Shown one piece after another: positions 25,481 to 64,000 of a stretch of DNA of 64,000 nt. A model generated the notes under the pieces. The model made no database searches and was not told where the DNA came from. It saw nothing but the letters and a program-made list of their open reading frames with translations. Source of the stretch: Ascidiella aspersa (taxonomy: Eukaryota); assembly GCA_963924565.1 (NCBI GenBank), contig OZ004611.1:29264001-29328000 (forward strand), given 5' to 3'. The translations under genes were made by a program, and so were the position numbers. Numbering within the stretch: position 1 is the stretch's first letter; every line of letters starts with the position of its first letter.

Positions 25481-25502
25481 AATACAGACGGTGGGACCTC
25501 TA

Positions 25503-27928: not shown

Positions 27929-28138
27929 AGCTCGCACAATTTGAGCTCCGCCACTCAGAAATACAGAAAACAGTGAGTTAAGAACGAAAACTGAAAAACC
28001 CTGATGACAACATTTGGCTGAAAAAAAAAAATCAAACAAACAAAAAGTTTGTTTCCTACTCGTAAAATTGCGTCTGAACCCGGAAAAAAAGAGTGGAGGG
28101 TAAAGCTTAGAAGAGCTGTATTCTTGTCGGGCGTAATC

Positions 28139-31100
28139 TTAGATAGCGGTGAAGAGTGCCTGGATGTTCTCGCGTCTAAGGCGGAAGTGCTGACGGAGGA
28201 AGAGCTCCAAGTAGTCCTGGAGGCAGGAGTCGTCCTTCTCGCAAATCCGGGTCCAAGCCGGCATCACGCGTTCCCGTTGCTTCTCCGTTACGTTGCTCAC
28301 GATCTTTGAGAAGTTTAAAGGCTCTGAAGAGGACTTATCTTTGCTCATCAACTCCGGAATCCGGTAGTGGCGGATCATTTCCAGGATGTTGGAATAAGTC
28401 TCCTTGTTCATCTGCGTCTCGCCAAGAAGGTCTTCATCAATTAGCTGCTCCATAGCCTCCCTCTCCTCTTTGGTCGCATTGAGGTCCATGTCTTCCGATT
28501 CCTCTTGGAATCGTTGTAGATCAAATTTGCTTTCATCATCTTCCTCTACTCCTTCTGCTTCTTCTTCTCCTTGTTCTTTGTCGTCTTGATCCTGTGGATC
28601 CTGTGGTGGTTTGCCTGTCAATTCATCTCTGTACATCTAAAGAAACAGTCGAAGTTTGGAGTTTAAAACCAAACCGAAGTGATCTTATAAAGACTGTTTA
28701 TAAAAACAGACAAAAAACAGAAAATATTTTCTCAAAATTTTACAGAAATATACATTTCGTCTGATAAATAGACATCGCTATTTTCTGTACAAAAAGAAAA
28801 CATGTATAAAATGCCGAAGTAATAACGATTTCTCTGCGTACTGGACCCGATCAAAAACCTGCAATTTTTTAGCAAAAATACAGTTGTATTTTTATAAAGT
28901 AACAGGTAAATATTTCTTTTTAAAATCTTAAAGTATGTTTTTGCAACTTTTTGGTTTAACACGCGAGTAATTTTGTATTAACCTACAAAGAGCTATTGAC
29001 GAGGCTGCTGCATAATGTCCAGATTAGTAACATATTTCTTGGTGTCAACCCGAAACAAAAACCTGCAATTTTCCAGCAAAAATACGGTAGTAATTTTATT
29101 CAAGTCACAGGGCTTTCGCCCCACTAAAAACGTCGAGTTTTGAATACTGTTGGAAGAAGTTGGTTAAAAATCGAAAAATATGAGTTGTAGTAGTGACAAA
29201 TTTGGAAAATTTGCATATTTTCGAGTGGAGGTCGGTTCGGGAACTCGTGTTCTACACGAGTTTAGCAATGTATTAGGTTCGGGAACTCATATTCTGCACG
29301 AGTTTAGCAATGTATTAGGTTCGGGAACTCGTATTCTGCACGAGTTTAGCAATGTATTAGGTTCGGGAACTCGTATTCTGCACGAGTTTAGCAATGTATT
29401 AGGTTCGGGAACTCGTATTCTGCACGAGTTTAGCAATGTATTCGGTTCGGGAACTCGTATTCTGCACGAGTTTAGCAATGTATTAGGTTCGGGAACTCGT
29501 ATTCTGCACGAGTTTAGCAATGTATTAGGTTCGGGAACTCGTATTTTGCACGAGTTTAGCAATGTATTAGGTTCGGGAACTCGTATTCTGCACGAGTTTA
29601 GCAATGTATTAGGTTCGGGAACTCGTATTCTGCACGAGTTTAGCAATGTATTAGGTTCGGGAACTCGTATTCTGCACGAGTTTAGCAATGTATTCGGTTC
29701 GGGAACTCGTATTCTGCACGAGTTTAGCAATGTATTAGGTTCGGGAACTCGTATTCTGCACGAGTTTAGCAATGTATTAGGTTCGGGAACTCGTATTCTG
29801 CACGAGTTTAGCAATGTATTAGGTTCGGGAACTCGTATTCTGCACGAGTTTAGCAATGTATTAGGTTCGGGAACTCGTGTTCTGCACGAGTTTAGCAATT
29901 TATTAGGTTCGGGAACTCGTGTTCTGCACGAGTTTAGCAATTTATTACTACTCGGTGCGAGTAACGCATTTTTGTTATCACTCTGATGAGTCAAATAAAG
30001 ATGTTTTGCGTTTGGCAAATGATTTGGTCTTTTATTTTTCGAAATTTTTGTTCGTATTTTTTTTTTGAGGCGTTTAGTGAAAACAATATCAAATACGTCG
30101 TGACAATGACTAACCGAGCGAAAGTAGGAAATTAAAACGTGCAAACGTTACAATTTGGAGTTTTACCTGACGGTTGGGAATTTAGTTACCTCCGATTGGC
30201 ATTTTACAACTTCCAGGATCATTTACCATTAAAGTCATAAAACGTAGTGTTAAATCACAATCTATTGCTAAAATTGTAGTGCTAGTAGTTCAATTTCGGA
30301 TCAGAAGTTTTACGCAATCCAATATAGGGTTTAGTAGGCAGAAGTGATTTGGCGTTTTTGGCGTAATTGCGGTATTCTGTGATCTAAGGAAAGTTTTGAT
30401 AGTACCAATACACCAATTTGCATTGAGTATCAGCTTCGATCCGATATAAATGACGTCACTGAACATCGTAATTTACAACGTCGCATCTACGTCGTAAAGT
30501 GTCGACGCTTTTACGTGGAAATAACGTTAGGTTGCAACGTCTTATTGACCAAACTTAAACCAAAAATCTACGGCGCTGCGACGTCAAATTGTTAGCTGGG
30601 ATATAGCTTATATAAAAACGAAACTGGGCATCCCTAATTTTGGAAAAAAACTAGTAAACAAGATATCCACCAAATTTCGTCAAAAAACAAAAAATATTCC
30701 AACTATATCGGCCGAATTACCTAAATACACTTATAAAGCATATTAGTTAGTGAGAAAAAATCCTCAAAACAAACAAATACCTGTGGTATTGACGGCCCGG
30801 GATCGCGCATCTTAACGTAGTCAAGCTCGGCCTGAACGGCCTTGGTCTGAAGGTGGCTAAGCACTGTGGTGATTTTCTGCTGCGCCTCAAATAACGCCGG
30901 GTTCTGCACCACGCTCCTGTAAAGGAAAAACCCTGTTAGAAAACACATCAAAAACGAACCAATGTCGCGTTTAATGTTTGTTGGAATAAATGAATGTAAT
31001 GTATATATTTTTTTGCAATAAAAAATATTTTTCACACTATTATTTTTTTATATAAAAATCATTCTGGTTGCTTACTTAAGGGACTATTTCTTATTTTGTT

Positions 31101-42976: not shown

Positions 42977-45900
42977 ATGGCTATGAAACTTATTTCTATT
43001 TCGTATTTGTTTAGTGGTATTTTCTCAGTTATATTCTTTAAAAGTGGTAAGTAATCGTGCGTTTAAATTTAAAGTAAGTCATTTAATAGTCAAAGCATAA
43101 TGACTGAAGGTTTTAGTAGAAGAGAAGTTAATCTTTCCTTGACGTTACCAATATGTTTTAATTTACTTCCAACATGGTGAAGAAAGCACATGTTTTCTTT
43201 CACATTTTTAAAAATAAGAATTATTAAAAACGTTGACAAAATGAAACCTATCCTTCGTATGGGTCTTTGATATTCATTATTAGCCAATAAAAACGTCTGA
43301 AACAAATGTTATTTTTAAACAAATTTAGAACTATAGTACACTTGCACGTTGTTATACATCAGAAAACGAGTAATCTCATTTTGTAACATTATTATGGCCT
43401 TACAACTTCTCATAAGCTTAAACCCAAATTGTGTTTTACAATAATCTTTATTCCCGACCGATAATAATGGCACAAAACTGACAAATTCATTTTCTCAGGC
43501 TCATGCACTAAATGTTGGGAATGTGTTAACACGGCGAATATTGAGGAATGTTTAGATTCTGGAAATCTAATTTCATGCCAGGACTCCGAGGTATTTGTTT
43601 TTTCAAAGATCTGAGAAATATCATGTTGGCATTTCTGAACGTATAACTTCCTAGACTAGACAATCCACTTTGTAAACTTCTTTACATGACCAACCTAACA
43701 CCATGAAAATAAATTGTCTAGAATTAAAATAATTTGAAATAAAATTTCGTGTTTTTTTATCTACATTGTCATAGTATTACCAGACACGAAATAAAAAAAG
43801 CCAAGTGCGCAGTAATATTAAATACGAAATAAGACTTAACTTTTGTCGGAACGTTACCTAAACCTGTCGGAAAACAAACTTTTCGGAAAAATCCTAAAAT
43901 TTTTCGGAATAGGAAAATCCCCAAACAACCTGTTAAGTCAGGGCCGGGCAACTGCTCTAGTCGAATGTCCCGATATGGGAAAATAAGGTAGTCTATGTGG
44001 CGGACCGGATTCCTGAATCTATACATTAATCGTGCATTGGTCTACCTATACAAGAAATAAATCTTATTTAATTCAAACTTTAAGTTTAATGCACACAGAC
44101 CAAAAGAGTATTCAATGAGCTTAATAACGTATTGTACTTCAATAGCCGCTTAAGTAGTTGGGCAGTGCGGCAAACTGTGGACGCGGGCCACATTATCATT
44201 TAAGACCGTAAATTGTCTGCGGTCCACTCAAAATCGCAGGCCGGGTCCGGACTTAAATTAATGTGTCTTACAAAATACTTTAATGGATAACTGTATATTG
44301 TATCTTCCGTTCACGTTAGGTGTGCTCTACTGAGGTTCGCAAAGACATTGACAACATTAGAATTTGGAAAGGATGCAAACAGAGAAAGGCCTGCGAAAAT
44401 CAACGACTGCAGGTGATAGTGGTTCAGCTTACCTCCCCTGTATATAATATTGCTATTGTAATTATGTTAAATAGTATATAACTATGATACTCCCAGAACT
44501 GGGAGAGAGCCCCTTACACTTGCAACAACGACCAACCAAACTCCCACTGCTGGTGCTGCTGCGACAGCGACTCGTGCAATGTCAACGAAACATGCGAAGG
44601 TATACTGAAATGTTTTTTTAAATCCACCTTTTTCCAACAATTTTAAACATTTATTCATTAAATGTCGTTTAACGGATGTTAACATAACTGCTGATTTTCT
44701 AACACCAAAATGATTTATTTAGATAAACGTCTTTAGTTTTAATAAGAGTTGGAGAATATAGTTGTACATTTAATTAATAGTTTTATGTATTTTTATTTGC
44801 TTCTTTGCAGCGCTCAAGGACCCCAGGGTTGGCGTTTAGTGGCTATACCTATTTGCCGCAAAACTTTCAAAATTTCAAGGAACATCTTATGCTTTAGATG
44901 GCTTTTACTTTGTAGTGACAGCTAGAGAATGCCCGATGCCATCGCTTCAGTTCAATCACGGGCTGATAAATTGTTCAAACTCTAACCACTTGGGGTCGCT
45001 GTGCAGCTACCAATGTACTGAGAAAGATTATCATGAGAAGCCTCTGAACAAGCAAAATCGACTGTGTCTGGGAAATGGAAAGTGGAGTGAAAAGAAACCT
45101 TGTTGTGTCAGTAAGTGTCCCTGTTGAGCAGCTGGGCTACTAGCACCATAGTTTTATTAGCAGTGTTTTAAGTGCACTTAAATAACTGTTTTCAAATTAA
45201 ATGACTTGGATTTGACTGGCTCACTTAAACTCGACTTGTTATTTTTTCAAAAAGACTTATTTAGACTCACAACACTATTTTTTAACGCCACGACACTACA
45301 TATATATAGAGCTAAGGGTTAAAAAAGATACATACAAAAACATCTTTGTTAGTCACATTAAGGAGGTATTATATTGGTTATCAGATGAGACCTAAAAAGT
45401 AATACCAGTATATATTTGGTGTCTATCTTATATCGGATTTCGCACGCCTGTATGAAATTGCAACCGATTTAGAAAAAATACCACTACCATTTACTACTGC
45501 ACAATATTTAAAGCAAATAAGTACATATGTCTGAGTTCATCGACTTGGTTTGTAAGACTTTTATAGAACAATTACAGTTACAGAACAACGAGTTTTTAGC
45601 CGTATGTCCACCAAACAAAGCACATTATTTTGTACTTTTTTAACCTTTTTTGCAGGGCCGTGCCCTCCTTATGTGCCGCTAGATCTGGTTGGAGTTGGTC
45701 ACTTCACCAATGAGGAAAACTTAAAAAGCAGATTTGGAGGTCTGGCTCCACTTTTCGGGTAACCTACCCTTTATTCTTATGATTTTACGCCTTATTATTC
45801 CTATGAATGTGAGATTTTAGATCTGAAACTTGAGTAGTTATCCTAGCACAATCTAAGACGACCAGAGAAGTTTTTAATAGACGTACGGAATCATTAAATC

Positions 45901-48272
45901 AATTTAGAATTTTCATTAATCCTGGACTGGCTTAGGTTTCAAATGAAGGTACATGATGGACTATGATAAGTCGTTAATCAACTGATACTATATAGTCGGT
46001 CGTTGAATGAAATTAACGTTGATCAGAAGCACAACTTGAGAAACGCTGGTTCACAATTCTTGTACACCTACGTATGAAATTCATTAGAGGCAGAATATTT
46101 TTACATCGGTGAAATTCCTTGGCAAAATTACTATTAGGGTTAACTGTAAATGTTATTGGTTTTATATCCGTTAACGAGTAAAAAAAGTAACTGGGTCGCG
46201 GCACGAAAATATCAATATCCGGAATTATATTTGCTGTACCGATATATAAACGCACAGGTGGATTATTGTCTATCGAAGGTTTAGTCGCTAACAAAGTTAA
46301 CGAAACCTTAGAAAAGGGAAAACATTTTGTATGATGTTTTCAATTTAAGAAATATTTTACACTGGTTATAAGCCGCAAGATTGGTAGGTATTAACGTTAT
46401 TATAATGTCAGAACGCCAACTCAAACTTATTTATCCATATATAGTTTATCTTTCTACTGTATAAAACTATATGGTTCCGTAGCATATCCCGATAAAATCA
46501 TTGGTCAAAATAATATTTTTGTTAAACGTCAAATAACACAAATGCCGGGTAATTATCAACACTTGAAAACCATTCATTTAGCCGGGTTTATTTTCGATCA
46601 GAAATCTCGCCAGGGGCGAGGATTACTTTCAACTGTACTTAGTTTATTTCGACGAGGAGGTTTACCACGTTCAGCTTCCCGAGGACACAACGGTGATTGG
46701 ACCGTACCGACAATTAGGCAAGTGATCACAACGAGTTGCTATGACATTCTGTTTTTGTTTACACTGCTCATAAAACAGGGTTCCGCACGCGCGCGTGATT
46801 GTTTGCGTGTTTGTTTGTGTGTTTTTGTAGGTTTTCTGTGTTTGTGTGTGCCTTTTTGGTGTGTGTCTGTTTCTGTCATTGTTGTTGTTAAACTATACTG
46901 TAATAGCAATCGTAAATTCGACAATAATCCCATTTACCAATTATCAAATGCATAAACATCAATGTAACACAAACACTCAATCCCCCAACTCCCACCCTTC
47001 ACGAAAAACTGCTGTTTTTTCTGAAAGTGTTGAGTCAGGTCTAGCATGTTCCCCCTGTACGTCAAAGCAGATTGTAATATTTCGGCGACAAACTTTACAT
47101 TCCCGTGTGATAAGACACAAAAGATTGATGTTTGCTAAACAAACCCTGTGCAGTTTATGCAACGAAGGTAATTTTTCTGTTCTAGCCAACAACACGGTCA
47201 ACAGTGGCGCTGCGCTTAGGCACGTTTACAACAACATACTTGGTCGCATGCGTCGAAGGGGTTCACAGAGTGACATTATCCTCTTGGCAGTTGAGAAAGA
47301 ATCAGACGACGATGTTGTATCTGCCGCTGCTGCGCTCAAAAGAGAAGGAGTCACGGTAACTAAACGAAAAATAAAATAAATAAACCAAAAACATCTTGAC
47401 CGTAATATTTTTAAATTTTTTTTGTCGAAAAATTTCAACCAAGGAAATAGATTCAAAAATTGTAGCGTAAATTTTTTAACGATTGAAAACACATACAGAG
47501 CAGAAAACTATAGGTAGGCTATTGAGAACACAGCTTTTGACTCTTGTTCTAAAGAGTTAAATTGTTTTCAGTTTCCACGGTCACAATTTGTTTGGAAATG
47601 TTGATCAGTACCGCGTCACAGGTAAATTTTTCGTTAGCAGTCTTTCATAGCTAACCCGAAAATCCATTTTAGGACAAAAAATTATAACGGACATACTGCA
47701 TTTTTTAATTCCTTCTAACGTCTTTTACACAAACTTTTCGCTAAATTCACCCCGACACACATTCACACACAATACAACTTTGAATAACCCTGCTATGCTG
47801 AAAACGCCTTGTTGTCTATGTCGGTTTAAATTTACCGCTTAAAAAAAAAATAACGATGATTATATTGTGCTTACTTTGACATATGTTTATTAGGTTTACC
47901 TTTATTGAATGATAACAATTTCAAAGTTTTGAATTTTTTGTTTGGCCGGCGATTGTCAATCCTTTAATTATCCAGTCCTTGAAAGCCAATTCTTACAGGT
48001 ATTCGGTCCCTTGGGAAAAAACAGTTTGATGATCCCTGCTGTAGAACCACAATTCGCAGTAAGGTAAATTTGGTTATTGTTTGTAGATTGTTTACGCTTT
48101 CTATCAACTTGCTGGCCACAAAGTGAACATGGATGAAGCGAGAGCAGTGGCCACCTCAGAAGATCACATTATTGTCGTTGGAGGAGAAAAAGAAGTGGAT
48201 TTTCTGCAAATGTTCAAAAATTACTTTGCTCTGGCCTGCGATTACCCTTGTCCGAATTCTGATGAGAACTGA
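42977..48272 (+). CDS. Secreted Ly6/uPAR-like Cys-rich + CCP/sushi + VWA-like protein, copy 1 (375 aa, 9 exons, intact)
   Basis: Exons 42977-43046, 43499-43590, 44320-44412, 44497-44599, 44916-45110, 45656-45758, 46602-46717 (GC donor), 47186-47355 and 48087-48272. Motifs: signal peptide; CWEC...C...CSTE...KGCKQ..AC...CWCCC...CN (three-finger-like); CP...HG..C..SNHLGSLC.Y.C...CLGNGKWSEKKPCC (CCP); LDLV..., NSGAALRHV...SDDDV..AA..LK..GV, ARAVATSEDHI (VWA). Confidence 0.88.
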
Positions 48273-49446
48273 GCTTGAATTTTTTGTCTGCTGAAAGACA
48301 AGCTGTAATTTAAGCGAATGGTGTTAATTCTATGCTTGTTAAGTTTAAAATATATGTAAATCAGTCAAAAACCCTATGTTCATCTTTCACTAATTTCCAA
48401 CGGTTGTCTGTATGACATGTTTTCAAATACCGGTCATACACTTTTCGTTTTGTACAGTAGGTGATTATCACACAGTAAACATGTAATAAATCAAATTTAA
48501 ATGTTTGTCAAATTGAGTGTTACAAGCTGGATTGAATGGGCCAAATAAAAATTGCTTTTAAGTGTGGCGTAAACTAAGGGCTATGTTTTATTGGTCCGAG
48601 TAATGCGCACCACTATTGTTAGCTTAAGTGCATTTAAACCTGCATAAACAAGAAGATTTTTTACCCAGTTTATTTGCCCAAGTATAGAGACCCTCAGTAA
48701 ATGCGATGTTGTTGGGTAAGTGACAAGCTTAAACATTAGCAAGTTTTGTCTATATTAGTTTCAATTGTAAAGTTTGGTTTTGCAAACCATACTTTTCAAT
48801 AAACTTAGCAAGGACCAAAACCAGTGCTTCCTAATCTTTTTGGCCTGGCGATCTATTCTTTTCTATTTTATGGAGGTGGAGCGAACCAAGTGATAACCTA
48901 ATACTAATAAACGAACTTCCACGTTCATATAGACGTAATCCCGTTAAGCTGTAACTCGATGTTGCATTGAATATGTGATAGTGGAAATAAATGTCGACCT
49001 CAAATTCCGGATCAGAACAAGAGAATACTTTAGTAAAGCAATTCAGGTCACACATTATTAATAAATCTTAAGAGATATACATTTCACCAGTAAAAGTTTT
49101 GTCAGTATATCTTAATTCGAGTGAATCTACATCTACCTTGCATAATTCATTCGAATTAAGATATACTGTTTTATTTGCGCTGACATAAGGGTTTAACCAA
49201 TTTGGACATCTACCTTGTCGATCATTCCTGAGAATAATTTTAAAACGGCCAAAGTAAAAACATGTCATGCTACTGGGTTTTGTAACGCTATCGCTCATGA
49301 TACAAAACCGCAAAATTGCATCCCGGGCGTATTGTAATATTGTGTTTATTTATTCTGTAGATCAAGTCGTTTTCCTCAAACTAAAAATTGAGGCGAGATT
49401 TGCTAGAAAGCGATTATTTTACGGGAAGTTTGCCAGTGCGTTTGCG

Positions 49447-52400
49447 ATGCAACTTATATGCATTTCGTTCTCTACAATAGGAATCTTACTGACGCTGGTT
49501 TTTCTAAAAAGCGGTGAGTTGACTTGCAATAATATGTTTCGATATTTTATAAATCTTTTAACAAAATGCCATCTTTGGTTGGGGCGTATTTCTGTGTAAA
49601 ATTTAGATTTTTTAGTTGATTGTTTGTAACGTGTCTTGTAAAACTTTTTGGCAGGCTCGTGCACGAAATGCTGGAAATGTACAAATGCAACAAATTCCGC
49701 GGAATGCATCACATCTGGAGATTTTGTGGAATGCAGCAACTGGCAGGTAAAACCACTCGAAAATGTCAGGCGTTGTGGTTTTCTTCCCTCTCAGTGGGTT
49801 CGAAATGGTTTTAGCCAAAGCAAACATGCTAATTTAGTTTTTAAATCGTAGATGAGAATAAAAAAGGTATTGCCTACAGTGTGTGTCTTTAGTTCTTCCT
49901 ATTCACCAAAGAGCCGGTCGTTCATGTTTAAAACTTAGAAGTTGGCTGGCTGTCTGACAGGTCAGAATTTCGTCAGCAAATTTTTAAAAATTAGATTTTG
50001 ATATCGCTCTATTTGTATTACCACTTAAAACTGTACTATATCGCCTTGAACTGGGTCAATACAATATAATTGTACACGTTTGGGCGATGATTACTCTGTA
50101 TGTATCTCTTTTATCCAGGTTTGTTCCACCGAAGTGCGCAAACGATACGACGAAATAAAAATATGGAAGGGATGCAAGCAGAGAGATCTTTTGAAAATCA
50201 AAGACTGCAGGTTCCTATATGACAATTGCAGAACTTCTTAAACATACATCTTAATTTACTTAAATTTTTTTTTCGTTTACTATTTAATGTTAACTTAGCC
50301 TGGGTTTTCGTACACCATAGAGATTGTGTTAACAATCAGCCCTTATAGTAAAAGTATTGGGACCCGTTAACACTGTAGTATATATACAAAGAGAATTGCT
50401 ATAAATGTCTATGTAAAAATAACACATAGGCTACAAGTCAATGCCTAAAGATGTTCAAGGAATTAAATAAGAAGATCGAGGAAAACATCAAAAGCTCACT
50501 GATATAACATAGCGATAATATAATTTTTTCCAGCTTTAGTACTGTTTGTCGTGGATACGAAATTTTGGGGCTGATCGTGGATTTTTGTTTGGGGAATAAA
50601 GGGACGTCTAAATGTGACGTCACACAATTGCGTTTTAACGTAACGTCATTGAGAAGATATCTTTAAAACACCACACAGTGCGGTTATTTTGTGGAAGTTT
50701 TAGTTTGGAATACACAAAAAAACGATCAATGCATTTGTAAGTTTACTTCTCCAACGCAGTACCTTCAACGGAATGTCCGATGCCATCGCTTAAACTGGAA
50801 CATGGCTACGGTACTTGTACAAACCCTAACCATTTGGGGTCGTTGTGTACCTACACATGCAACGAGACCGGTTACCAAGGTTTGCCACTCAATAAGCAAA
50901 GTCGCTTGTGCCTGGGGAGCGGAATGTGGAGTGAAAGAAACCTCGTTGTGTCAGTAAGTATAGCTTTGTTACTTCAGCGTATTATAAAAGAGCGCTGGAA
51001 ATGTAAGAATATTGATGACAAAACGGATAGCTCACTGTTCTAACATGAATAACGTAAAAAAAACTCTTCAAATCAGAGTATGAATTGGTTAATTTTAATG
51101 GTTGGCCAACAAAATGCCGTCTAGGAATTTATTTTATATAAAATAGTGAGCATTTAAGCGCTGCGAAATAGTTTTAAGTAATATTCTGCCAGGGTTTAAA
51201 CATTTGGGCCTCTACCCATTTCCTACATTCAATTCCTTGCGACCCTATAAGTTTAGCAGAATTGAAAAAAGCATTTTGTGATGCATTTGTCGAAGTAATG
51301 TTTGCTTTTAGGGTTTTATATTGCAAATGTATATTTATTAAACATCAAAAAGGACAGTTATTATATATAAAAGAACACAACGTACAACATGGTCGTGGAA
51401 CCCAGTTTGAGAAGCCCTGCTGTAGTGTATCGCGATTTATGCATTATTTTCAGGGCCCTGTCCACTATGTGCGCCTTTGGACCTTGCAGCCGTGGTTCAG
51501 TTCAACAGCGAAGAAAACTATCGAAATAGAGTTGAGAGCTTTAGCGTCGTTTTCCGGTAAAATGAAACACACATTATGCAAAAAGATTGCAAATTATCCA
51601 GTTACTAAAGGATATCTTCGCCAATCTGATAGTCACATGTCGTCACTTAGTATCGGATCTTACCTGTGTAGTTTTTGCTCATCTTATCGGATATTGTTAT
51701 TGAAATAAACGACGAAGTATAGTACATAGCTTGTTGTACTGAGCAATCTTTGTCAAACGGTACTTTGATTACAGAAATCTGTCCGCAGCGATGAATATAC
51801 CCAACAATATCGGGTTTACTTTTACGACAGAGTTTACGATGGCGAATTTATTGGTACAGATGGTACGGGTGGAGAATACCAGGCCCCAGGTATGGGATAC
51901 AATCTATTGTGGTATGTCAAGTATCTTTTTAAATTATAATCGTACTGTGTCGCGAAGTTAAACAAAGAAATAAAACCAGATTGTCGTAAAATATTTCTGG
52001 ATTTTTGCATGAACATTTAACTTGAGAGTCTTAAACTATAGTTGGTTTACCAGGAATCATCAAATAAAAGCGATATATTTGTTCAGTCTGTTTTAGGGAT
52101 GAAAACATACTATTTTGAGGATGTTGCTTAATTTGTGCATCATAAGGCGTAATGAATTTTTTTATCCATATGCACGATATCCGTAACTTTTAGATTTAGT
52201 ATCGACACATACCTTAAGCATGCTAAATTAAGTAATTGCCAGCCGCTTTCAACAGAACAGATGTTATCGCAAAATGCAATGCAAGAATAAAAATATAATC
52301 ATACATAAAACGTTTCCTATAAAGACAGTTCCCTTACAGTTAAAGAAAATCCATTTTGCATCAATTACGGACAGTTGGTTAAGAACCACTCTGGCGTTTA

Positions 52401-53689
52401 CCGAAGTAACTAAACTAAAAAAATGTCAACATGAAACATTATTTTAAATTCCTCTTTTAATGCTTTAAAAGTTAACAACACCGAAAGAATGATCTGGTCT
52501 TTATTTATTAGTAGAGAAAATAGTCCTTAAATCTTCCATATATGCAGCACATAGTACTTTTCAGTCATTTCAAAATGACTTGTTTACAACACTGCAAATC
52601 ACAAACATTATTGAGGCTTTAGGTTTATTACGTAAAGCTTTATATCTTCTCGCGTAAAGCAAGTCAGTTACGAACGAATGATTTTAAGCGCAAAAAACGT
52701 TTTTTCACATTTTAGAGAACGACACAGTCAACACGGGCGACGCGTTGGCCTACGTAAACAACTTCGTGTTTCCCAAATTCCATCGGCCCAGCCAGCTCAA
52801 TGACATCATCTTTCTGGGTGTCGAGCGAGAATCAGATGATGACGTCACGAAAGCAGTGGCCGAATTGAGAAAGAGCGGGGTCACGGTAAGATGGCTTTGT
52901 TTTTGGGTCTATTTAACTTGTAATAAAGACTTCTCATCTAACGTAAAGAAAGGATGTAGCAGATTTGCGCATAACAAAACTTAGCATTACGTAAATTAAG
53001 TATTTAAACAATTAGAATGATAATAATTCTAACACACATTATGTTTGTAAAGCACTCTAATTCACCTTTCATAAGTTAGGTTTATATATTTCAGTTACAT
53101 TATCAAAAAATGATGATAAAGTGCGTATCGTCGTGATCCTTTTTTAAGCTGTATTACAGATCGTTGCATAGTGTAGTCTACCTATTTAACTAATAAAATG
53201 AAGTATTGGCTGATCGTTGCATAGTGTAGTCTACCTATTTAACTAATAAAATGAAGTATTGTCTGATGCTCGTGGCATATCCATGCCGTTTTGTGTTTTC
53301 CTCAATTCCCAAAACACCTGAAAGACGAATCATCCAATAAAACCAGTGAACTTTAAGGCGCTGTTAAGTTTACAATTTTTTGATTACTTTTTTTTAAAAC
53401 AAACAATTATCATAGCTGTTTTTTTATTTATTTCATGCTAAGGAACAACGGTTTATAAATATGCTTACTGTTGCTGTCCAAACGAACACAAACTTTTTAC
53501 AAAGATATTCTACATCTTCTTCGAAAGCACCGAGCACAAAGTCAACATGGAAGAGGCGCGAGCTGTGGTAACTTCAGAAGATCACATTTTCGTTTTAAAA
53601 GGAAATTCAGAACTGAAGATGAAGAGACTGTATGACGAGCTTTCTCTATAGTCTGTAACTTCCCTTGTCCAAATGCTGATGAAGAATAA
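49447..53689 (+). pseudogene. LU-CCP-VWA paralog, copy 2 (frameshifted pseudogene)
   Basis: Homologous exons at 49447-49513, 49655-49746, 50119-50210, 50760-50953, 51454-51556, 51775-51889, 52716-52885 and 53505-53689. Exons 3, 5, 7 and 9 are each 1 nt shorter than in copies 1 and 3. Exon 4 survives only as a remnant (CVNNQP, about 50300-50360) without the CCC..CN part. Confidence 0.85.
53159..53266. repeat. Direct tandem duplication of about 54 bp
   Basis: GATCGTTGCATAGTGTAGTCTACCTATTTAACTAATAAAATGAAGTATTG occurs twice in tandem. Confidence 0.9.
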
Positions 53690-55260
53690 GGAAAAAGCTT
53701 TACCTAGCTAAAACACGAATGATGAAATGTAATCAACCCAGTGGTTCCCAAACTTTTTTGCTCGCGGCACACAAAAACTATCTTAAATATTTCGCGGCAC
53801 GCTTTTAACAGAACAACAATAGAGTCATTTTACAATCGCCCTTAACACACGACAAATATGTGTAAATGTCCTAATATGATTAATTTGTAATAGGAAGTGC
53901 GTATTTAAGTCTAAAATGCTTGCGTGTATGCCTATTGGTAATACAAATAACTTATTTTACCAAATTACAAAAAGTTACGCGGCATACTTGACAATCTTTC
54001 AAGGCACACTAGTGTGGCGCGTCACATACAGTTTGAGAATCACTGGTCTAACCAAACATTGCGGTGACCGTGTTTGCGTGCTTACTCCTAATACAACTTT
54101 TCACGCAAGCCAAACGCCTGCTTCAACATCAGGCCGTGTGCTCACATTTGAAGAGGGCGATCATTATTCTTAGAACAAACTATATGAGACCTGTATCGTC
54201 ACCGAATTAAGTCTTAATAACTGCACTTAAGTCATCGTAAAAAACACATCTTCAGGATAATACACAAATGGAGTATGACATTGAAATCAAAAGACACCGC
54301 AGACTTAACGAATCTGTCTTGATTTCGGTGTACGAATTCTACGTAAGCCGTAATCGTTAGACAAGCAGCAGCATCATAAAGGCTAGACTAGATGACACTT
54401 GTTGAATACATATGTGTGTGTGTGTCTTTCATGGACAAATGTAGTAGATTATAATAGCAAGAATAGCTAAAGATTTATTCGAATTAAGATTCTGATTATT
54501 CTCAGGAGGAAAATACATTATCATGAAACATCTAATGAAACACAACCCTTATTTATTTTTTCCAACGTTTCGGTTACTTATGCAGACTGTTTTCATCAGG
54601 GAATGCAACAAATGTTTGCGCCTGTGATTGAGGATAACCCTTTAGATGCATAAATTCTTGAGAAATCTATGATATGCGTAGATTTAATTAAGAAAGGCTA
54701 CATACGACTGAAAATAGTCCATGTAAATAGGTGTATTACGATAAAAATTAATGATTATCGATTAAATAATACCTCTAATAATTTTTTTGTATTTGCCAAA
54801 CGTGTATTATAAACCATGTTATGCAATGTGGTCCATCTCTTTTAAGCCACGTGAAATGCGAAGGAATGGGGAAAATATATGGAATTTACCCTGAAATGCG
54901 CGACCTACACTTCTTTCGATTGCTTTATATTATCAATTTATTGAAATATAATTTTCAAGACTCAATTTAAACAAAGTTTTTTTTTTTGCCCTTAGTCATA
55001 GGTATGATATGCTAACTGTTGGTTTTCTCACAAAAACAAACTATTTGAAGTTATTCTACATCTTTTTCGAAATCAAAGATATGGGAGAATCCTGGGAATT
55101 CACCCTGAGAGAGGACGATCTATGTAGGTCATAGAAAGATTAAAGAAAATAAGAATTAGCAGAGGAGTTATTTTGAGTAATGTTATTTCTGGAAGCAACA
55201 GTTGATATACGGCATAAATGTCAATCTTGCTGCATTAAACCTTCCCAGTAAACACCCTGG

Positions 55261-55273
55261 GGCGTATAAAAGC
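55261..55273 (+). promoter_or_regulatory. TATA box of LU-CCP-VWA copy 3
   Basis: GGCGTATAAAAG about 195 nt upstream of the ATG, identical 12-mer to copy 1. Confidence 0.55.
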
Positions 55274-55460
55274 GGGAATGTTAGCATTCATATCTGGTAA
55301 TACAGATTAAAGTGGCTTTACATGCCATCATACATCGCCTAAATGCAGACTCAGGATATAACACCTTTGCCAATGTGAGTTTACTATTCAGCAGTATAGC
55401 TGCCGCAGTTAGACTTTTTGGCCTGGACAATTTTATTCGGAGATTTATTTACAAATCGCC

Positions 55461-58400
55461 ATGCAACTTTTTACTATTTCATTCATTTCAAGTGCAATCC
55501 TGCTGTCCGTTTTATTTCCTTCAAGTGGTAAGTTATCCAAGCTTGTAAGAAACAGTGTTTTGAGCAAATTGTTTTATTGACTTTCTTGATATTTAGGACA
55601 CTTATGATCATTGTTGGTATAATGTTGTCTTTCCGCTGTTCCTCGATTGTTTTTTTTGTTAGTTTCTGTTTTTGTTATTTTTTTGTTTAGCTGTTGCCAC
55701 GTTAACTGTATTGTGTATTTATTTCTTGTTTTTGTTTTTGTTTGCAATATGGCCTTATGTGTCTACGTCTTGTTGTTTTGTACTTGTAGTTTAAACAAGT
55801 TTCTTAAATAAATTATAATGCTAATAGAACCACTATCGAGGGCCAGCTGACTTGATGCACCTAACGGTCTTTCGCTGCCCCCTGAAACTCCGTGTTTGTA
55901 TTGTTAGGTGTTAGTAACCAGCAAAATATAATTAAAACACACAATTGTCGTGTTGGCAACGATATTTTGCAACTAACACGTAACACGTATTATTATGCTT
56001 TTTTATTTTGCGTTCGATTTTCAGAATGAATACATTTATCTTAATGTTACTTTTCAGGTTCGTGCGTACAATGTTGGAAATGTGAGAACGTAACCAGCTT
56101 TACAGAATGTTCGGCTTCTGGAGAGCTAAAGGAATGTGGACACAAAGAGGTATGTTTTTGTTCGCTATAGGGATTAGTAACCTTTGGTATGTTCTTAACA
56201 TTTGCGCTTTGGGCATTCTGTTGTGTTTGTTTTGGTGTTGGACTCAAGTTCATTACACAAACAACTAAAGTGGATGTGTTGACCACACATATCCTGATTA
56301 TACGATGATCCCCGCTATTTGGGGATATTCTCACGCTACAAATACGATTAGGTTGAACGTCTGGAAAACTGAAGGCTAGGAAAACCTGTTCATTAATCCT
56401 TGTTGCTTTATTCAGGCTTGTTTTACCGAGATTCGGAGAGATGGAAACGACATGAAAATATGGAAGGGCTGTAAACAACTGGAGGCTTGTGAAAATCAAA
56501 GATCTCAGGTGCGTTGAGACAAACATATACGGTTTGTGAAATTGATTTTAATTTTGAATATAAATTTTATTTGAACAAAAAAACGACCTAAAAAAAGAAC
56601 GAAAAATATTGCTAATTACTATTTATGCCGGCAACCTTTAGCAACAAAACAGAGGCCGGGTTTAGTTTTGAATCTAACTTTTAGAGCTATGCATACAAAA
56701 AGTCGGACTTATTTTTATATAGGTGTCTTACTGAATATATAGCGCAAATTTAAACAATGCTAGCGTAGAGTTTCTGATATCAAGTTAGCTCACAAAAAGC
56801 GTCGGGCCGAAAATTTTTTTATTTTTTTGAGGTCGGGCCGAAAATGTTTTTGATTTTTCGTATTTTTTTGTACCAAGAATTGGAACAGAGAGCCTCACAC
56901 TTGCAACAACGACCAAGATATTTCACACTGCTGGTGCTGTTGTGACAACGATTCGTGCAATACAAACGAGACTTGCGAAAGTATTAATTTGTATTTTTTA
57001 GTGTCTAAATGTTTATACTTTAAAAAACATGTTTTTTTAATAAAAATGAGTAAAAATGCCAAATGTCTAAACGCAGATATACACCTTTTGCAACATTTGT
57101 TTTAAAAAGGTGTAAACTTTAAATTTACTCCGTTTTTTTGGGGGGTTAAAGTGTTTTATGTCTTTTACTCAAATTGCAGCCTACTTACAATAGTTTGCAT
57201 TCAATTACACAAAAATTTAAATTAGCCATTTTCAAGACTTTGACTGATATTAGTGATATTTTAATTGTTTTTTCATTAACCATAAGTGTTTTTATTTTTT
57301 AAATAAATAATTACCTAGAAATGACAAATTAACGTAAATGGGTGTATTCTTCATATAAAACTATGTATTATGTTTATCAAATCCAGTTGTGTCAGCGCAA
57401 TGCCCGACGCCATCGCTTCATTTGGACCACGGCGAAGTGAATTGTTCCAACCGTAACCAACTTGGATCGCTTTGCACGTACCGATGTACTGAGAGAGACT
57501 ACCACGGCTTGCCTCTAAAAAAGCTGAATCGCTTGTGTCTGGGCAACGGGAAATGGAGCGAAAAGAAACCGTGCTGCGTTCGTAAGTACGATTTTGACAC
57601 GTTAAATATATTATGGGATATAATATCATCGTAAATTACAAAATGACCAATTTCTTGTGAGAAATGCTTCAGAAAGTTCTGTAGTTTCATAATTACAGGG
57701 GATCCCTCTTTAACTGGAATGATTCATGGCCCAATAATTTTAAAGATTGTTTGAAACCAAAGCTCACACTGTGTATGGATGACTTCGTCGTAACTTGTTG
57801 TTCGCGGCAAAAAACTTTTATTTTCTGGCAATGAGAATATTTGTTTTGCGTTTTAAGATTTCTGGACTAATATAAATCGTTTCCACCGAAATGCAAAAGT
57901 TTTTTTTTCGAACTAAATTTTTTTATTTGCACATAACAGTCTAGGTGAGTATTTAATGCTTTACTTGCAAGACCAGCTACAAGTATATTATATGCTTATT
58001 ACATTATATCATAATACAATGATTTCGTAGACCGCCGCGACGCAAAAAACGTGTGTTTACACCTTCGTTTACATTAGTGGTTATCATACCGCTTTGTTGC
58101 GTAATAGACGTGATGATGATAGAAGTGAATTACTATTCGCACAAAACCGCTGATAAAGCACAGCAATAAGTAAACATATCGCACATGCTTGACCCTTTAT
58201 AAGTTATGCGATGAACCGGACAGTATTATAGAAGAACTAGCCCTTATTCTACTCTGTTATAGCTACAACTATTTTTTGAATTTACAGAACCTTGTCCTCC
58301 GTTTGTTCCGTTAGATCTGGTAGGACTCGCCCATTATAAAAGCAACGACAGCTTAAACAAAAGATTCACAGGCCTTGGTCCGCTGTTCAGGTAGTTTTCT

Positions 58401-61167
58401 CACAAAAGTGTATTTGTTAAAACCTAATCAAATCAAACAAACATTAAAATCATTTCTTTATAGAAAGCATTGTCCTAATTACGGGCCACAAGATGTTTTA
58501 TGGAAGTGCAAAGTGTTTGGCGCCTTTTTTGCTAATATACTTTAATTGTCGTTATGGTTGTTAACTGCTGCCAGAAAGTCAGTGTGTAATAAATTTAAAT
58601 GTACGTGATATATTCTATGTGGCCAAATTGTTAACTTGATGAACGATAGGGGGAAACCCGGTTTCTTTTATGTCTTACAGTCGGCTAAAGTTCGGTAAGG
58701 ATTTTTTCCAGAACTTTGTTGTGTATTTCAACGAAGAGGTTTATCACGTTTATTTGCCTGGTGATCCCGAAGTCGTTGGAATATTCCGCCCATCAGGTGA
58801 GTGCTACCATTAATCAAAGACCACCTTACTCTTTGTTACCAGGCAAAACTTTTAATTTAAAAAACAAAAATAATGAGTGAAAAACATAATACTGAGTGAA
58901 AAACAGTTTTCCTCCAATGCTTGATTAGAGTGGTTTTGGAATAGAAAACAAAATTAGAAGTAAAACTTTTTTCAAAAAATAAATTTCTCCAGAAGCTTGT
59001 GCTTTTAATTTAACAGTGGATTAAAACATCTGCTGAAATTCAAAAAACCGCTGTAACGCTTCGCTAATATCACACCGTATTGAACAATGTTTAAAATGCA
59101 CAATGTTTCATATTCACCAACAAAGATGTAATATTTAGAGATCACCATCAGTACTAATTTTAATTTTCAATTGCCAAAGTATTGGCTTTAAAAACACCTA
59201 AAAAATTATTATCAGGTATTCGAATATAATGAGAAGCAGCTCACATCCCTAATCAGACCAACATGTTACACGCCTAACACCAAACATGGAAGATAAAGTC
59301 TTTTCGAGATTGTGTTTTCATTCTTCAAAAGCAGTTTTTGTTAAATGCAAAGTTGATTGTTTTCAAAGCGTATGTTCGTTTTCGTTTCACTGTAAATCTT
59401 GATTTAACAAAGCAAATTTTCATCTGCCGATGCAAAATTGATTTTTCCAAAAGAATTTTTATTCTACAATGCAAAATTTCGCTTTCCAAAACAAACGTTT
59501 TATCTCTCAACGTGAATTCCATTTTCCAATAATTCTTTTGGTGTAATGTTTAGCTAACAACACGGCCAACACCGGCGCGGCCCTTCGCTACGTTCGCGAC
59601 AACATCCTGAGCCACCTTCACCGCAGAAGCGGGCACAGTGACGTTGTACTTGTATCTGTGGAGAAAGAGTCGGATGATGACGTCACTGAGATTGCGGCCG
59701 AGCTGAAAAGAAACGGAGCCACAGTGAGTGGTCTCATGAAATCGCCTGTGCTGTAATTCTGGACTCCAACCTTTAGACCGGGGTTTCTCAGCCTTTTGTT
59801 GCTATCCCTCAGAAATAATAAATAGATTGCGGAACCCCTACAAGATTTTTTCATAGGTAATTCACTATAATGTTGCAATAAACGGAAGTAGAACAACACA
59901 CATCAACTCTACACAACGTAGGAAGTTATAAATGGAGTTATTCCACTCTAAACTTACACAAAAATTGTAAAAGTTAATCAAACATCAGATTGTTAAAGAT
60001 TCTCAAATACCTCTCGGCGCCCTTGAGCATTAGAAATGGCACTCCGGTTAAGAACCACTACTTTAGACCGAAAATATAGATCAACATCAAGGTCGGAATG
60101 AAAAGTAGTTTGGGATGAGTCAAAAATAGCACTAATACATATTAGTTGTAATAACGTTTAAATCGGAATAAGTCTTAAGCTCGTTGGAAAACGAACTAAA
60201 TGACTAGTATCAGGTCTGTGCAACTTTTACCTAACCACAAATCCCACCCCTATATGTACATCACTAACTCCCCTAATAATTTCAACCCTAACCTAATTTA
60301 AAAATTGGACTGTGTCGACAATCCTTGGCACAGCCTTGATTTTGTAAGCAAAGTAAATTAAACGAACTGTGAAACATTTTGGAAACAAAATGTAAAACAA
60401 CAATACAATGCATTTGTATATAGTGAAGCTGTAATACAGCCTTCGAATCAGACAAATACTGTTTACCACTATTTATATTTTGGTAGGATAATGACTGTAG
60501 TTGGTCAAAATAAATGTCCAAGCTCAAACAGTTAGGGTAGATTTTTAAACGTTTCTAATAAATCGCTATTGTTTTCAAACACGATCAACGAAGAGCTACC
60601 TAATCCTGTATAGGCTTTGATAGTTATTCTACGTCTAACAGCAAATAAATTTTAAAAGGTGGAAAGATTATCTTAAATAACTCTGTTGCTGTGAAGTCGT
60701 TTGTTGCCAGCTATCATACAGTATATAAAATTGTTATACACTGAAATGAATTAACTTAAATAAATTCTGTTATTTATCTATTTTCTAAGTGGTAGGATTT
60801 TGTTGATTGCAGTGAAGATGCATTTTAACTCCTACAGTACGCGCTATAAATGATTTGTGTCTATTATTTTATTACACCATATATATTGAAATTATTACCA
60901 TCTGTTGGATAAACAATTTAGTGAGATTGGCGATCGCTTAAACAAAGTCATATTCCAATCATAACCAACAATTGACTTCAGATCATCTATGCGTTCTATC
61001 AAAGTGCCGAGTACAAAGTCAACATGGAAGAAGCAAGGGCAATAGCGTCATCGGAAGATCACATTCTTGTCGTTGGCGGAGAAAAGAAAGTGGACTTTGT
61101 GAAGCTTTTTAGCGATATTTTTGCCCTCGCTTGCAATTACCCTTGTCCTCATACTGACGAAGAATAA
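55461..61167 (+). CDS. Secreted LU-CCP-VWA-like protein, copy 3 (374 aa, 9 exons, intact)
   Basis: Exons 55461-55527, 56058-56149, 56416-56508, 56878-56980, 57387-57581, 58288-58390, 58681-58796, 59554-59723 and 60982-61167. Exons 2-9 match copy 1 in size and phase; the frame is open and ends ACNYPCPHTDEE*. Confidence 0.9.
59779..60060. mobile_element. hAT-type MITE
   Basis: CGGGGTTTCTCA / TAAGAACCACTA ends with a perfect TSD CTTTAGAC. Confidence 0.8.
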
Positions 61168-61829
61168 AACTTGCTTTTAGTGGTGAATTACAGCGAGACA
61201 AATCGATGCTTCACTTGCTGTCTAACTACAGCCAGCGGGTCAAATCCGGCACGTGAAGCAATTTATTCCTTATTTTTTATAAAACTGTTTTATTCCTTTA
61301 CGCTTTTTTCGTCATTTTGGAATATTTTATTGAAAGAATTATACATGCAAGGTTACTCACTTCCTTTATTCTTACCAGGTTGGCTAAACTCAAATATTTA
61401 TACTTATCTTTACAAATGAATCACACTTTATATTATTTGTAATTTTAAATTCTCTTTTTGGTCATGCCCGCCAAGACATTTTCGACTCTCGTGCGGCCCT
61501 TCGTTCAAAATCTCGTGCGGACCCTTTTGTTCTAATGTAATCTCAAAACGGCTGACCATTCTTATTACAGAGGGTGAAAAGGCGGTTAAATCGGGCTAGC
61601 CTCACAAAAATTAAACATAATTTTTTTATTTTCAGCAAGCTGAATTAATTAATGTTTTCCAAACTACCTATACTCTGTGTAAATCAGTTGTCTTGGAACT
61701 TTGCGGGCTGGTATCCTCCAAGAAAAATAAACTAATTCACGGCATACTTTTTTTTCAAAACCATACAATGGTATATAAAAGATCACCCGAATTACGAGAC
61801 GAGTTAGTTGTTGAATGATTGCCATAATA

Positions 61830-62074
61830 CATTGTTTTTCAACCGTGGCCTTCGGCCCCCCAGGGGGGCCACGAAGCAGTCTTCAAGGGGCCATAAGCTT
61901 GTCTTAGTTTACTAATAAGCCTGTTAAACTATTTTTTGTGGTTTTCGTTTCGTATTTGAAGACCTCTCTTATAATGTTATTTAAAGTGTTTCTCGAATTC
62001 GTGAGCAAGGGGGCAACGGAGTGTTTAGTGCTAATGAAAGGGCGCCACGACTCATAAAAGGTTGAGAACCTCTG
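61830..62074. mobile_element. hAT-type MITE
   Basis: CATTGTTTTTCAACC / GGTTGAGAACCTCTG ends with a perfect TSD CCATAATA. Confidence 0.82.
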
Positions 62075-62680
62075 CCATAATACAATCTTTTTCTAAGGAA
62101 TACTTTAGATTTACGTTTTCGTATGCTTGTCTATGTGCCACTTGTAATAAAAATACTGCAGCTTGTGTCTTTAAATTACAATAAGCCCACAGCATACAGC
62201 ATCTTTCGCAGTGTTGTAATGAATTAACTAAATTACTGGAGATTTGACTTAATTGTACTTAATTTACTGTTTTAAAATGATTCGATTTGACGTTAGTGTT
62301 TTGGCCATGATGACTTGACTTAACTTATGTCATTATACTAGATTACGTGAGTTAAAATGAAGTGTTTTTATTACTTTTTTAATAATATTTAATTATTTAT
62401 ATAAATTTAGACCCATCAAACATTTTGCTTGTTATATGTTGCGTTTTTGTTATTATTGGTTTAAAATATTTCTAATAGCCGAACTTGTTTATCAAATCAT
62501 TATTTAACTTGGCTGAAATAATTAAAATCCAGATTAGTATATTTTAGATATTAGGGTCAGTGTTGTAATACTATACCTAAAAAGCTGCAGAGCAGTACTC
62601 AGACTTACCCTCGTATTGCGCGGTCTTAAGGTAAAGGAGTAATATAATTTTAATGTGTTCGTTAAATAAAGCCAAATTAC

Positions 62681-63637
62681 CTTTCACCTCGGACCATAGC
62701 CTTTAACCCTTTTGTTGTAGCTTTCTTTGTCGTTGAATTGGAGAACAGCCACGAAATCCAGTGGGACATATAGTGGGCATTCCTCTGTTTTAAAGAAAGG
62801 TATAAATTACTAGTCTATGGAATTTTTAATTAATTAACGGTTTATGTAGGCGCTATGCCAAGCCATCTCCAGCAGATTTTCTTTAGCTGGTGTACGCGAA
62901 CCATTAAAGATTCAAGGCAAAAATAAGGGTTACTGGAAAGTAATAGAGGTTTCATGCGTCCTTTTACTATTATAAACACAGCGTTAAACTATAGACTGTT
63001 GAAAAAAACCTAAGATTTAGATAATATAGATGTGTCACTTTACTTAGTTATTGCCTAATGTAAAAGGTGATGCATTATATTAGGTACATTATATTTGGTG
63101 CCTAAACTTACTTGGTGTTCGGGTTATTATTTTATATCATAGAGAAAGGGGTTACTACTAAACCAAATCCATGTATTGTGTTTAAAACGAAGTGCGTTCA
63201 CTTTGTCGTTATACCATTTAACATTATGCACAACTTGTTTCGTGAGGTAAATTTACTTCTCGTTGTTTAATTAGATCTCGATTCAGAATTTGAAGTGCCT
63301 TATTGATGTCCGAAAATTTACAATGGCAGTCGCTTAGAACTGTTACAAAAACATTGACGAACTCTCAAGAATAAATGCTTGCGGTTTGTCTCTTTATAAT
63401 ACCAACATATCTATTTTTATTAGGAGTGCACTTACTGACACAACAAGGTTTCTTTTCACTCCACTCTCCATTCCCCAGACACATTTCATCTTGCTTGTTG
63501 GGGGGGTAAACCGTGGTAACCGGTCTCGTTTCATGTGTAGCTGCACAGCTGCACAGCGACCCCAATTGGTTAGCTTTGGAGCAAGTCACGTCGCCGTGAT
63601 CGATGGGGGGATATCATCGGACATTCTATAGCAGTAA
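62681..63637 (-). pseudogene. Inverted, truncated LU-CCP-VWA paralog, copy 4 (CCP exon and first VWA exon only in this window)
   Basis: Exon 63637-63436 (NQLGSLC...CLGNGEWSEKKPCCV) has indels, an 8-bp duplication and TGA in place of a Cys codon. Exon 62784-62681 (ECPLYVPLDFVAVLQFNDKESYNKR...) has a stop. No homologs of exons 7-9 were seen before 61167. Confidence 0.82.
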
Positions 63638-64000
63638 CTGAAATGAGAGTTAAGACAATCAGGTGGCAGTCTTACAACTGAAGAAAACCTTTCGTCGTGA
63701 CACCATATACAACAAGTAACCAAAATCAACATAGTGTAAACTGGGTAGAAGTAAAATCAAAACCTACGAGAAGAAAAAGTGATGCACAGCATTAAATAAA
63801 TTGAGACCACCATAACTTTGAATGTCCGAATAGAATATAATTTCAAAAGAGAAAACAAATTAAATGGTAACATTACAGAAATTTCGACCAACACAGTCTA
63901 ATTGAGCATATCAAAACGGACTTTAGGTGGATAATAGTGGACACGCAAAAATCAAATGTATTTAATTTCAGCAGCTCCGCAATTATAAATTAAAAAAACA

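Follow-up and report, generated by a model that had tools for sequence, protein, structure and literature searches.

A small tandem cluster of putatively secreted three-finger, sushi and VWA genes in Ascidiella aspersa and its relation to an ascidian LU-(CCP)n-VWA family

Results

Organization of the gene cluster

The window analysed here, a 64,000-nt stretch of the Ascidiella aspersa assembly, contains a small set of old duplicated genes, of which two are intact and two are broken (Table 1). After splicing by coordinates, copies 1 and 3 both give an open frame. Their nine exons measure 70/92/93/103/195/103/116/170/186 nt and 67/92/93/103/195/103/116/170/186 nt, respectively, in exact agreement with an earlier note made on this DNA, and both share the intron phases 1,0,0,1,1,2,1,0. 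GT-AG borders were found in 15 of their 16 introns and GC-AG in the other (copy 1, intron 7). Exon homology between copies was accepted where the alignment score exceeded the maximum obtained from shuffled exons; tblastn E-values went down to 1e-25 to 1e-27. The two proteins are 62% identical with 25/25 Cys at matching positions. Thus, the proposed fixed Cys scaffold is confirmed, but the divergence that was said to accompany it is only moderate (non-Cys identity 52% in LU, 69% in CCP and 61% in VWA). No indels occur in the 2253 nt of coding sequence of the two copies. In the hydropathy scan of copy 1 the peak lies at the N-terminus only, and no transmembrane or GPI-like stretch was found after it. 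Therefore, the product is probably a soluble protein of ~39 kDa that is secreted, as the earlier note had assumed. Alignment to homologs places the predicted signal-peptide cleavage just ahead of the x-x-Cys with which the LU domain begins.

Table 1. Coordinates of the gene copies, their domains and their remnants in the window.
Feature	Position	Strand	Remark
Copy 1, whole gene	42977..48272	+	intact, 9 exons, 375 aa
Copy 1, exons 1-5	42977-43046, 43499-43590, 44320-44412, 44497-44599, 44916-45110	+	
Copy 1, exons 6-9	45656-45758, 46602-46717, 47186-47355, 48087-48272	+	GC donor after 46717
Copy 1, exon 1, putative signal peptide	42977..43046	+	top hydropathy window N-terminal (KD19 1.79)
Copy 1, exons 2-4, predicted LU domain	43499..44599	+	Cys-rich, ends CxCCC-x4-CN; homolog alignment
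Copy 1, exon 5, single sushi/CCP	44916..45110	+	Pfam Sushi E 7.7e-7
Copy 1, exons 6-9, VWA	45656..48272	+	C-terminal C-x3-C; Pfam VWA on exon 8
Copy 2, whole gene	49447..53689	+	broken
Copy 2, exons 1-3	49447-49513, 49655-49746, 50119-50210	+	exon 4 absent
Copy 2, exons 5-9	50760-50953, 51454-51556, 51775-51889, 52716-52885, 53505-53689	+	
Exon-9 junction remnant	55007..55075	+	duplicates intron-8/exon-9 junction of copy 2
Copy 3, whole gene	55461..61167	+	intact, 9 exons, 374 aa
Copy 3, exons 1-5	55461-55527, 56058-56149, 56416-56508, 56878-56980, 57387-57581	+	
Copy 3, exons 6-9	58288-58390, 58681-58796, 59554-59723, 60982-61167	+	
Copy 4 remnant, exon 6 (VWA start)	62682..62784	-	tblastn E 1e-4
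Copy 4 remnant, exon 5 (CCP)	63436..63637	-	tblastn E 6e-14

The predicted three-finger head

Based on a profile of homologs and on the predicted fold of one of them, exons 2-4 encode a putative LU three-finger domain. Pfam gave no match on the six single LU exons of copies 1 and 3, nor on the LU domain of the Ciona homolog P0130 alone. A profile of 34 rows (28 homologous N-terminal domains and the six window LU exons) matched LYPD1 in the PDB with an E-value of 2.2e-8 and LYPD6/6B with ~1e-4. At E<=1, Toxin_TOLIP was matched by 21/34 of the alignment rows and UPAR_LY6_2 by 11/34 (best 4e-6), and the terminal CC-x4-CN motif of Ly6/uPAR proteins is present in exon 4 of both copies. All structures were predicted for P0130, which is 31% identical to copy 1 (43% between the LU domains). 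Its LU domain, folded alone, reached a pLDDT of 95.7 and resembled LYPD6B (VIA Z 10.9, rmsd 3.2, 86 aligned), Lynx1 (Z 9.9), GPIHBP1 (9.8) and LYPD1 (8.8); Foldseek returned LYPD1 as top match, in agreement with an LU fold. In the full-length model (pLDDT 79.6, pTM 0.65) the LU part is poorly resolved (pLDDT ~40-65). In the mature protein 14 Cys fall within the LU region, and the P0130 model shows helices in two of the loops. A three-finger toxin was considered and ruled out by the multidomain chain and by the nearest folds, LYPD and Lynx. The LU-only chain of a GPI-anchored Ly6 protein or of a free toxin of 60-80 aa was not encountered; the product is a multidomain protein of 375 aa with no hydrophobic C-terminus.

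A single CCP and a VWA domain with a substituted MIDAS

Pfam was applied to the window exons one by one. The Sushi model matched exon 5 of copy 3 (E 9.2e-7) as well as that of copy 1, with 29.6 and 29.9 bits, respectively, against a gathering cut-off of 20.7, and the best PDB sequence matches of the CCP are MASP-1, CD55 and C1s. The VWA model matched exon 8, above the cut-off of 23.8 bits in copy 3 (29 bits, E 1.5e-6) and below it in copy 1 (21.6 bits, E 2.7e-4). In both genes the stop codon follows immediately after VWA, and a C-terminal trypsin-like protease is absent. The proposed combination of LU, CCP and VWA without protease therefore stands, CCP and VWA through the window exons themselves and LU via homologs.

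The five MIDAS positions read H-T-E-V-E in copy 1 and H-K-N-A-E in copy 3 instead of D-S-S-T-D, and the canonical MIDAS (DxSxS...T...D) is lost in both predicted proteins. The full-length P0130 model first matched the VWA folds of collagen VI a3 N5 (E 6e-11) and VWF A3 (E 7e-11); C2 and factor B followed at ranks 22 and 26. The fold check thus recovered LU and VWA in the Ciona protein, while the complement-like character suggested for these genes is weakened by this ranking, by the single CCP and by the lack of MIDAS and protease. The window VWA lacks ~15-20 residues that homologs have after strand 3, so that its fold may differ from that of the P0130 stand-in. The idea of head-to-tail contacts was explored by complex prediction of the LU against the CCP-VWA part of P0130, which scored 0.00 in both runs and speaks neither for nor against such contacts.

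Two broken copies

Copy 2 had been noticed as frameshifted. We located four 1-nt deletions, one each in exons 3, 5, 7 and 9, but the damage goes beyond these. Exon 4 is absent, without a trace in a six-frame profile search that found only two exon-4 copies; it would carry seven Cys of the LU domain, and without it the phase is broken. Two of the 18 scorable Cys are lost by substitution (16/18 kept), and the first MIDAS position is Gln. Each of the four deletions falls within or next to a short homopolymer run, which leaves room for an assembly error. It is unlikely, in our view, that they are long-read consensus errors in a gene that is alive or was lost only very recently. Such a gene would fit the position of the lesions, the absence of stops in 335 readable codons, the intact splice sites (7/7 introns GT-AG) and the low dN/dS to the intact copies (0.16-0.19), but not the missing exon, the substituted Cys or the stop and larger indels that are also seen in copy 4. 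Furthermore, at the indel rate of copy 2 the chance of finding none in the 2253 nt of copies 1 and 3 is P ~1e-4. We therefore favour a real pseudogene. Copy 2 looks recently dead, and the gene losses look recent in comparison with the old duplications.

Copy 4 was described as inverted and truncated. It lies on the minus strand and is represented by exons 5 and 6 only, exons 7-9 not being found within the window; its 5' exons may lie past position 64000, since only 363 nt remain on that side and intron 4 is 316 nt long in copy 1 and 406 nt long in copy 3. Exon 5 carries three indels and one in-frame stop, and exon 6 has Gln at the first MIDAS position and a stop close to its end. A junction remnant between copies 2 and 3 is 79% identical to copy 2 over 71 nt (blastn E 7e-9). 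Upstream, between 39500 and 42900, no further remnants scored above shuffled controls.

Age of the duplicates and selection

Synonymous differences between the copies (pS ~0.70-0.72) are near saturation, with pN of 0.22-0.31. Pairwise dN/dS is 0.12 for copies 1-3, 0.16 for copies 1-2 and 0.19 for copies 2-3 (upper bounds 0.19-0.31); because dS is near saturation these values are rough, and selection at single sites is still possible. The duplicates are thus old and under purifying selection, with no diversifying signal among the paralogs, which argues against the rapid turnover that was proposed in the earlier note. Conservation is weakest in finger 1 (exon 2), with 13/30 identical residues versus 27/34 in exon 4 (Fisher p 0.004); over the eight exons taken together, heterogeneity falls short of significance (p 0.06). 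In a tree of 18 rows copies 1-3 group as a single clade (100/100), and copies 2 and 4 are broken, so tandem birth and death by pseudogene formation, as suggested before, are both seen in the array. As read from these comparisons, the duplications date far back and the surviving copies are constrained. In itself, the array is an ordinary old tandem cluster.

An ascidian family with a variable number of CCPs

Searched with the CCP exons, a set of 1.84 billion representatives gave 238 matches at E<=0.001, and full-length homologs with the layout SP-LU-CCP-VWA occur among the best 150 of these 238 that were listed. A word-indexed search with three CCP exons found no homolog among 35 candidates. 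From 172 homologs 60 were selected, and 35 of them have the architecture LU-(CCP)n-VWA, with n ranging from 1 to at least 24; the rest are fragments, lack LU, or have LU fused to EGF or VWA. The homologs that carry an organism name, a minority of the matches, are all from ascidians (Ciona intestinalis, C. savignyi, Phallusia mammillata, Clavelina lepadiformis and Styela clava). The architecture is ascidian-wide, not lineage-specific as had been supposed. Automatic names on the homologs are matrilin-3-like, MUP-4-like, P-/E-selectin-like and SVEP1-like, and the suggestion that ascidian relatives are annotated under 'selectin-like' names proved right. In an atlas search, the first match of the full-length query was a chordate 'P-selectin-like' cluster with 52 members (0.96), and with LU alone all leads were below 0.9.

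Across 48 VWA rows, the MIDAS is intact in 32, has His in place of the first Asp in nine and is otherwise degenerate in seven. All nine His rows, which include copies 1 and 3, are one-CCP proteins. They make up one side of a branch with a support of 100/99 in a careful tree of 41/48 rows, from which seven rows that were overlong or unusual (P0080, P0129, P0060, P0054, P0167, P0057, P0168) were left out, and the same group is found at 97 in a quick tree with all 48 rows. A rule that one CCP always means His was rejected: C. savignyi P0156 combines one CCP with DSSSS, and Clavelina P0164 has neither motif. The clade of copies 1-3 adjoins LU-less CCP-VWA proteins of Clavelina (support 97/94), and the stem leading to the window copies is long (1.3-3.9 changes per site in three trees). 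The seven one-CCP homologs used for comparison are 25-31% identical to the window copies, in line with the suggestion of a divergent subfamily without a close database member. By sequence, the window genes belong, as divergent members with a single CCP, to the His branch of an ascidian SP-LU-(CCP)1-24-VWA family. Both the variable CCP number and the His-for-Asp branch go beyond what the earlier note had described.

Discussion

In this study, a tandem cluster led to a family of ascidian proteins that is apparently undescribed in print. LU domains are seldom fused to other modules. No description of an LU-(CCP)n-VWA architecture was found in the literature searched, in which few subscription papers were covered, although Davidson & Swalla 2002 and Chambon 2007 may describe CCP-VWA members. 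A survey from 2026, which covers LU architectures across 387 genomes of invertebrates, includes, in its accessible part, no tunicate and the lancelet as sole chordate, and the same part of its text does not mention sushi or CCP; VWA appears in a figure legend, so some LU and VWA fusion is present in that survey (PMC13719153). The portions available of bioRxiv 10.1101/2025.05.20.655184 and of PMC10433773, including two supplementary files, contain nothing relevant on LU-CCP-VWA. Candidate relatives can be picked out from the accessible parts of several ascidian studies: Ci-Sushi (KH.C11.274, automatically named P-selectin) in tail regression (PMC8495957, PMC13225635), vwa1c in the papillae (PMC4109947) and, by name only, P-selectin, SVEP1 and matrilin genes in the anterior endostyle (PMC9953650) and like-named genes in the larval tail (PMC8495957). 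A family hidden in five ascidian species under selectin, matrilin and SVEP1 labels means that many 'P-selectin' calls in ascidian transcriptomes need re-reading. The main interest of the locus is this family and its short branch with a His MIDAS, more than the array. The one-CCP proteins of the His branch, at 39 kDa, would also be the easiest members to express and solve.

What these proteins do can be approached from their anatomy. Our leading reading, which we hold tentatively, is that copies 1 and 3 are non-catalytic, two-ended extracellular adaptors in a secreted matrix or mucus. The LYPD1/LYPD6-like three-finger head would bind one partner, and the single disulfide-stiffened CCP would serve as a short spacer. 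At the other end, the disulfide-closed VWA domain would bind a second partner by a route other than the canonical Mg/MIDAS mechanism, in the way that VWF A1 and A3 bind theirs. For copies 1 and 3 we infer secretion, disulfide pairing, two-ended binding and a matrix location. The window copies would then be the shortest form of a family whose members keep these two ends but place between 1 and at least 24 CCPs in the middle, and most likely the family bridges or coats components of secreted matrix such as mucus, tunic, larval or epithelial surfaces. The array would have arisen by old local duplications under purifying selection, followed by decay of two copies. It is tempting to speculate further that ends spaced by 1-24 CCPs act as a 'molecular ruler' for secreted nets, tunic or adhesive, and that the His branch has replaced the Mg site by a transition-metal site made of the invariant His, the retained Asp/Glu and a nearby acidic S-D-D-D stretch; we regard this extension as a long shot.

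LU, CCP and VWA are found just as often in immune proteins, and therefore anatomy by itself does not decide between a role in matrix and one in immunity. Immune families typically occur as tandem arrays that include pseudogenes. Factor B binds C3b through its MIDAS. A non-catalytic innate-immune bridging protein, either opsonin or decoy, is a rather doubtful alternative to the matrix adaptor. Its LU head would bind microbial or non-self surfaces and its CCP-VWA end haemocyte receptors or C3-like proteins. The order of CCP and VWA is that of factor B and C2, as given in the accessible part of PMC11312191, the closest CCPs in the PDB are those of complement proteases and CD55, and both the local expansion with two dead copies and the weak conservation of finger 1 would suit an immune role. 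However, the proteins have no protease, one CCP and no MIDAS, the complement folds rank far down the list, diversifying selection left no sign and the heterogeneity among the exons does not reach significance.

Gamete-recognition proteins commonly have a dN/dS of ~1 or higher, and the NxI loop motif has a role in LYPD6. In a further alternative, the product would be a secreted receptor modulator or recognition cue. Its LU would act, in the manner of LYPD1/LYPD6/Lynx or Bouncer, on a nicotinic receptor, a Wnt co-receptor, or a receptor for gametes or for larval settlement, and CCP-VWA would serve as matrix tether in place of a GPI anchor. This agrees with the closest LU relatives, both in sequence and in fold (LYPD1, LYPD6/6B, Lynx1), the lack of a GPI tail and the action of the candidate relatives Ci-Sushi and vwa1c in metamorphosis (accessible parts of PMC13225635 and PMC4109947), but it is improbable given an LU identity to LYPD1 of only ~25%, the absence of NxI from copies 1 and 3 and a dN/dS far from that usual in gamete recognition.

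The matrix-adaptor reading can be placed beside known systems. The closest are the ascidian relatives, namely Ciona intestinalis 'matrilin-3-like' P0130, C. savignyi H2ZPS8 (P0123), Phallusia 'MUP-4-like' P0152, Clavelina LOC143462271 (P0106, CCP-VWA only) and the 'P-/E-selectin-like' proteins of Clavelina and Styela. With them the window copies share domain order, Cys pattern, the CC-x2-PCPP linker and the C-terminal C-x3-C, and the short members also have His at the first MIDAS position. The window copies differ by Glu at the last MIDAS position, a shorter VWA, the low identity and the long stem, and they keep LU whereas their nearest Clavelina relatives are without it. LYPD1 (Lynx2), LYPD6/6B, Lynx1 and CD59 share the terminal Cys motif and the predicted three-finger fold with the window LU, which, unlike in Ly6/uPAR proteins, is not GPI-anchored, is fused to CCP and VWA, and has extra Cys and, in the P0130 model, two loop helices. 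Factor B and C2 are secreted, as the window proteins probably are, and have CCP directly followed by VWA, but the window copies lack serine protease and MIDAS, have one CCP and an N-terminal LU, and connect CCP to VWA by a Cys-locked linker of four residues. Oikosins, too, contain CCP and VWA, as far as the available part of PMC3390340 describes them. The VWA domains of VWF A3, collagen VI N5, matrilin and integrin I domains are the closest folds to the P0130 model, and an N-to-C disulfide probably closes the window VWA. In contrast to these proteins, the window copies have a single VWA in which His replaces the MIDAS Asp, and they are without collagen, EGF or coiled-coil parts. Selectins and SVEP1 share CCP modules with the window copies, and SVEP1 also VWA, which is the origin of the automatic names; C-type lectin, EGF, pentraxin, HYR and transmembrane parts are all missing from the window copies. 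The selectin, matrilin and SVEP1 labels on LU-(CCP)n-VWA proteins are therefore misleading.

Copies 2 and 4 of the array

Copy 4, the inverted remnant of exons 5 and 6, is far nearer to copies 1 and 2 than to copy 3 at the synonymous sites of its CCP exon (pS of 0.42 against copy 1 and 0.38 against copy 2, vs 0.73 against copy 3). In addition, exon 6 of copy 4 shares with that of copy 2 a Gln and the motif preceding it. It is possible that copy 4 arose by a later duplication or was altered by gene conversion. The last intron of the broken copy 2 contains a near-perfect tandem duplication of 53 bp. This duplication may have happened recently or may be an error of the assembly at this spot; it bears on the question of whether the lesions of copy 2 are artefacts.

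Genomic surroundings of the array

The array lies directly downstream of the position of a multi-exon gene on the reverse strand, in which three exons gave weak matches to 2OG-Fe(II) oxygenases (E 0.006-0.1). Its product is possibly a two-domain secreted enzyme resembling prolyl hydroxylases. The segmental duplication, comprising two pairs, is recent and local, and adjoins an acidic ORF.

Additional features of the window
Feature	Position	Strand	Remarks
C-type lectin gene, secreted	16794-18094	+	at least 2 exons; start resembling a signal peptide; matches to Lectin_C at E 5e-4 and 7e-7
Segmental duplication, pair 1	24196-25481 / 26636-27929		90-95% identity across both pairs
Segmental duplication, pair 2	23110-23373 / 25585-25849		90-95% identity across both pairs
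Acidic 165-aa ORF	28142-28636	-	no clear family
42-bp tandem repeat	29234-29947		17 copies; 98% matches; both strands open
Multi-exon gene	39464-32919	-	signal-peptide-like start
53-bp duplication, copy 2	53159-53267
CCP exon, copy 4	63637-63436	-

Related proteins

The Styela clava family members P0054, P0160 and P0168 are listed with an identical length of the longest contig (24,297,679), hinting that they are clustered on one chromosome. In P0054 and P0168 the MIDAS was lost independently of the His branch, the nine-member group with one CCP that includes copies 1 and 3. The family-type LU is a mobile module, since the homologs P0153, P0154, P0158 and P0162 combine it in one chain with ILEI/EGF, with EGF-CCP or with double-VWA modules.
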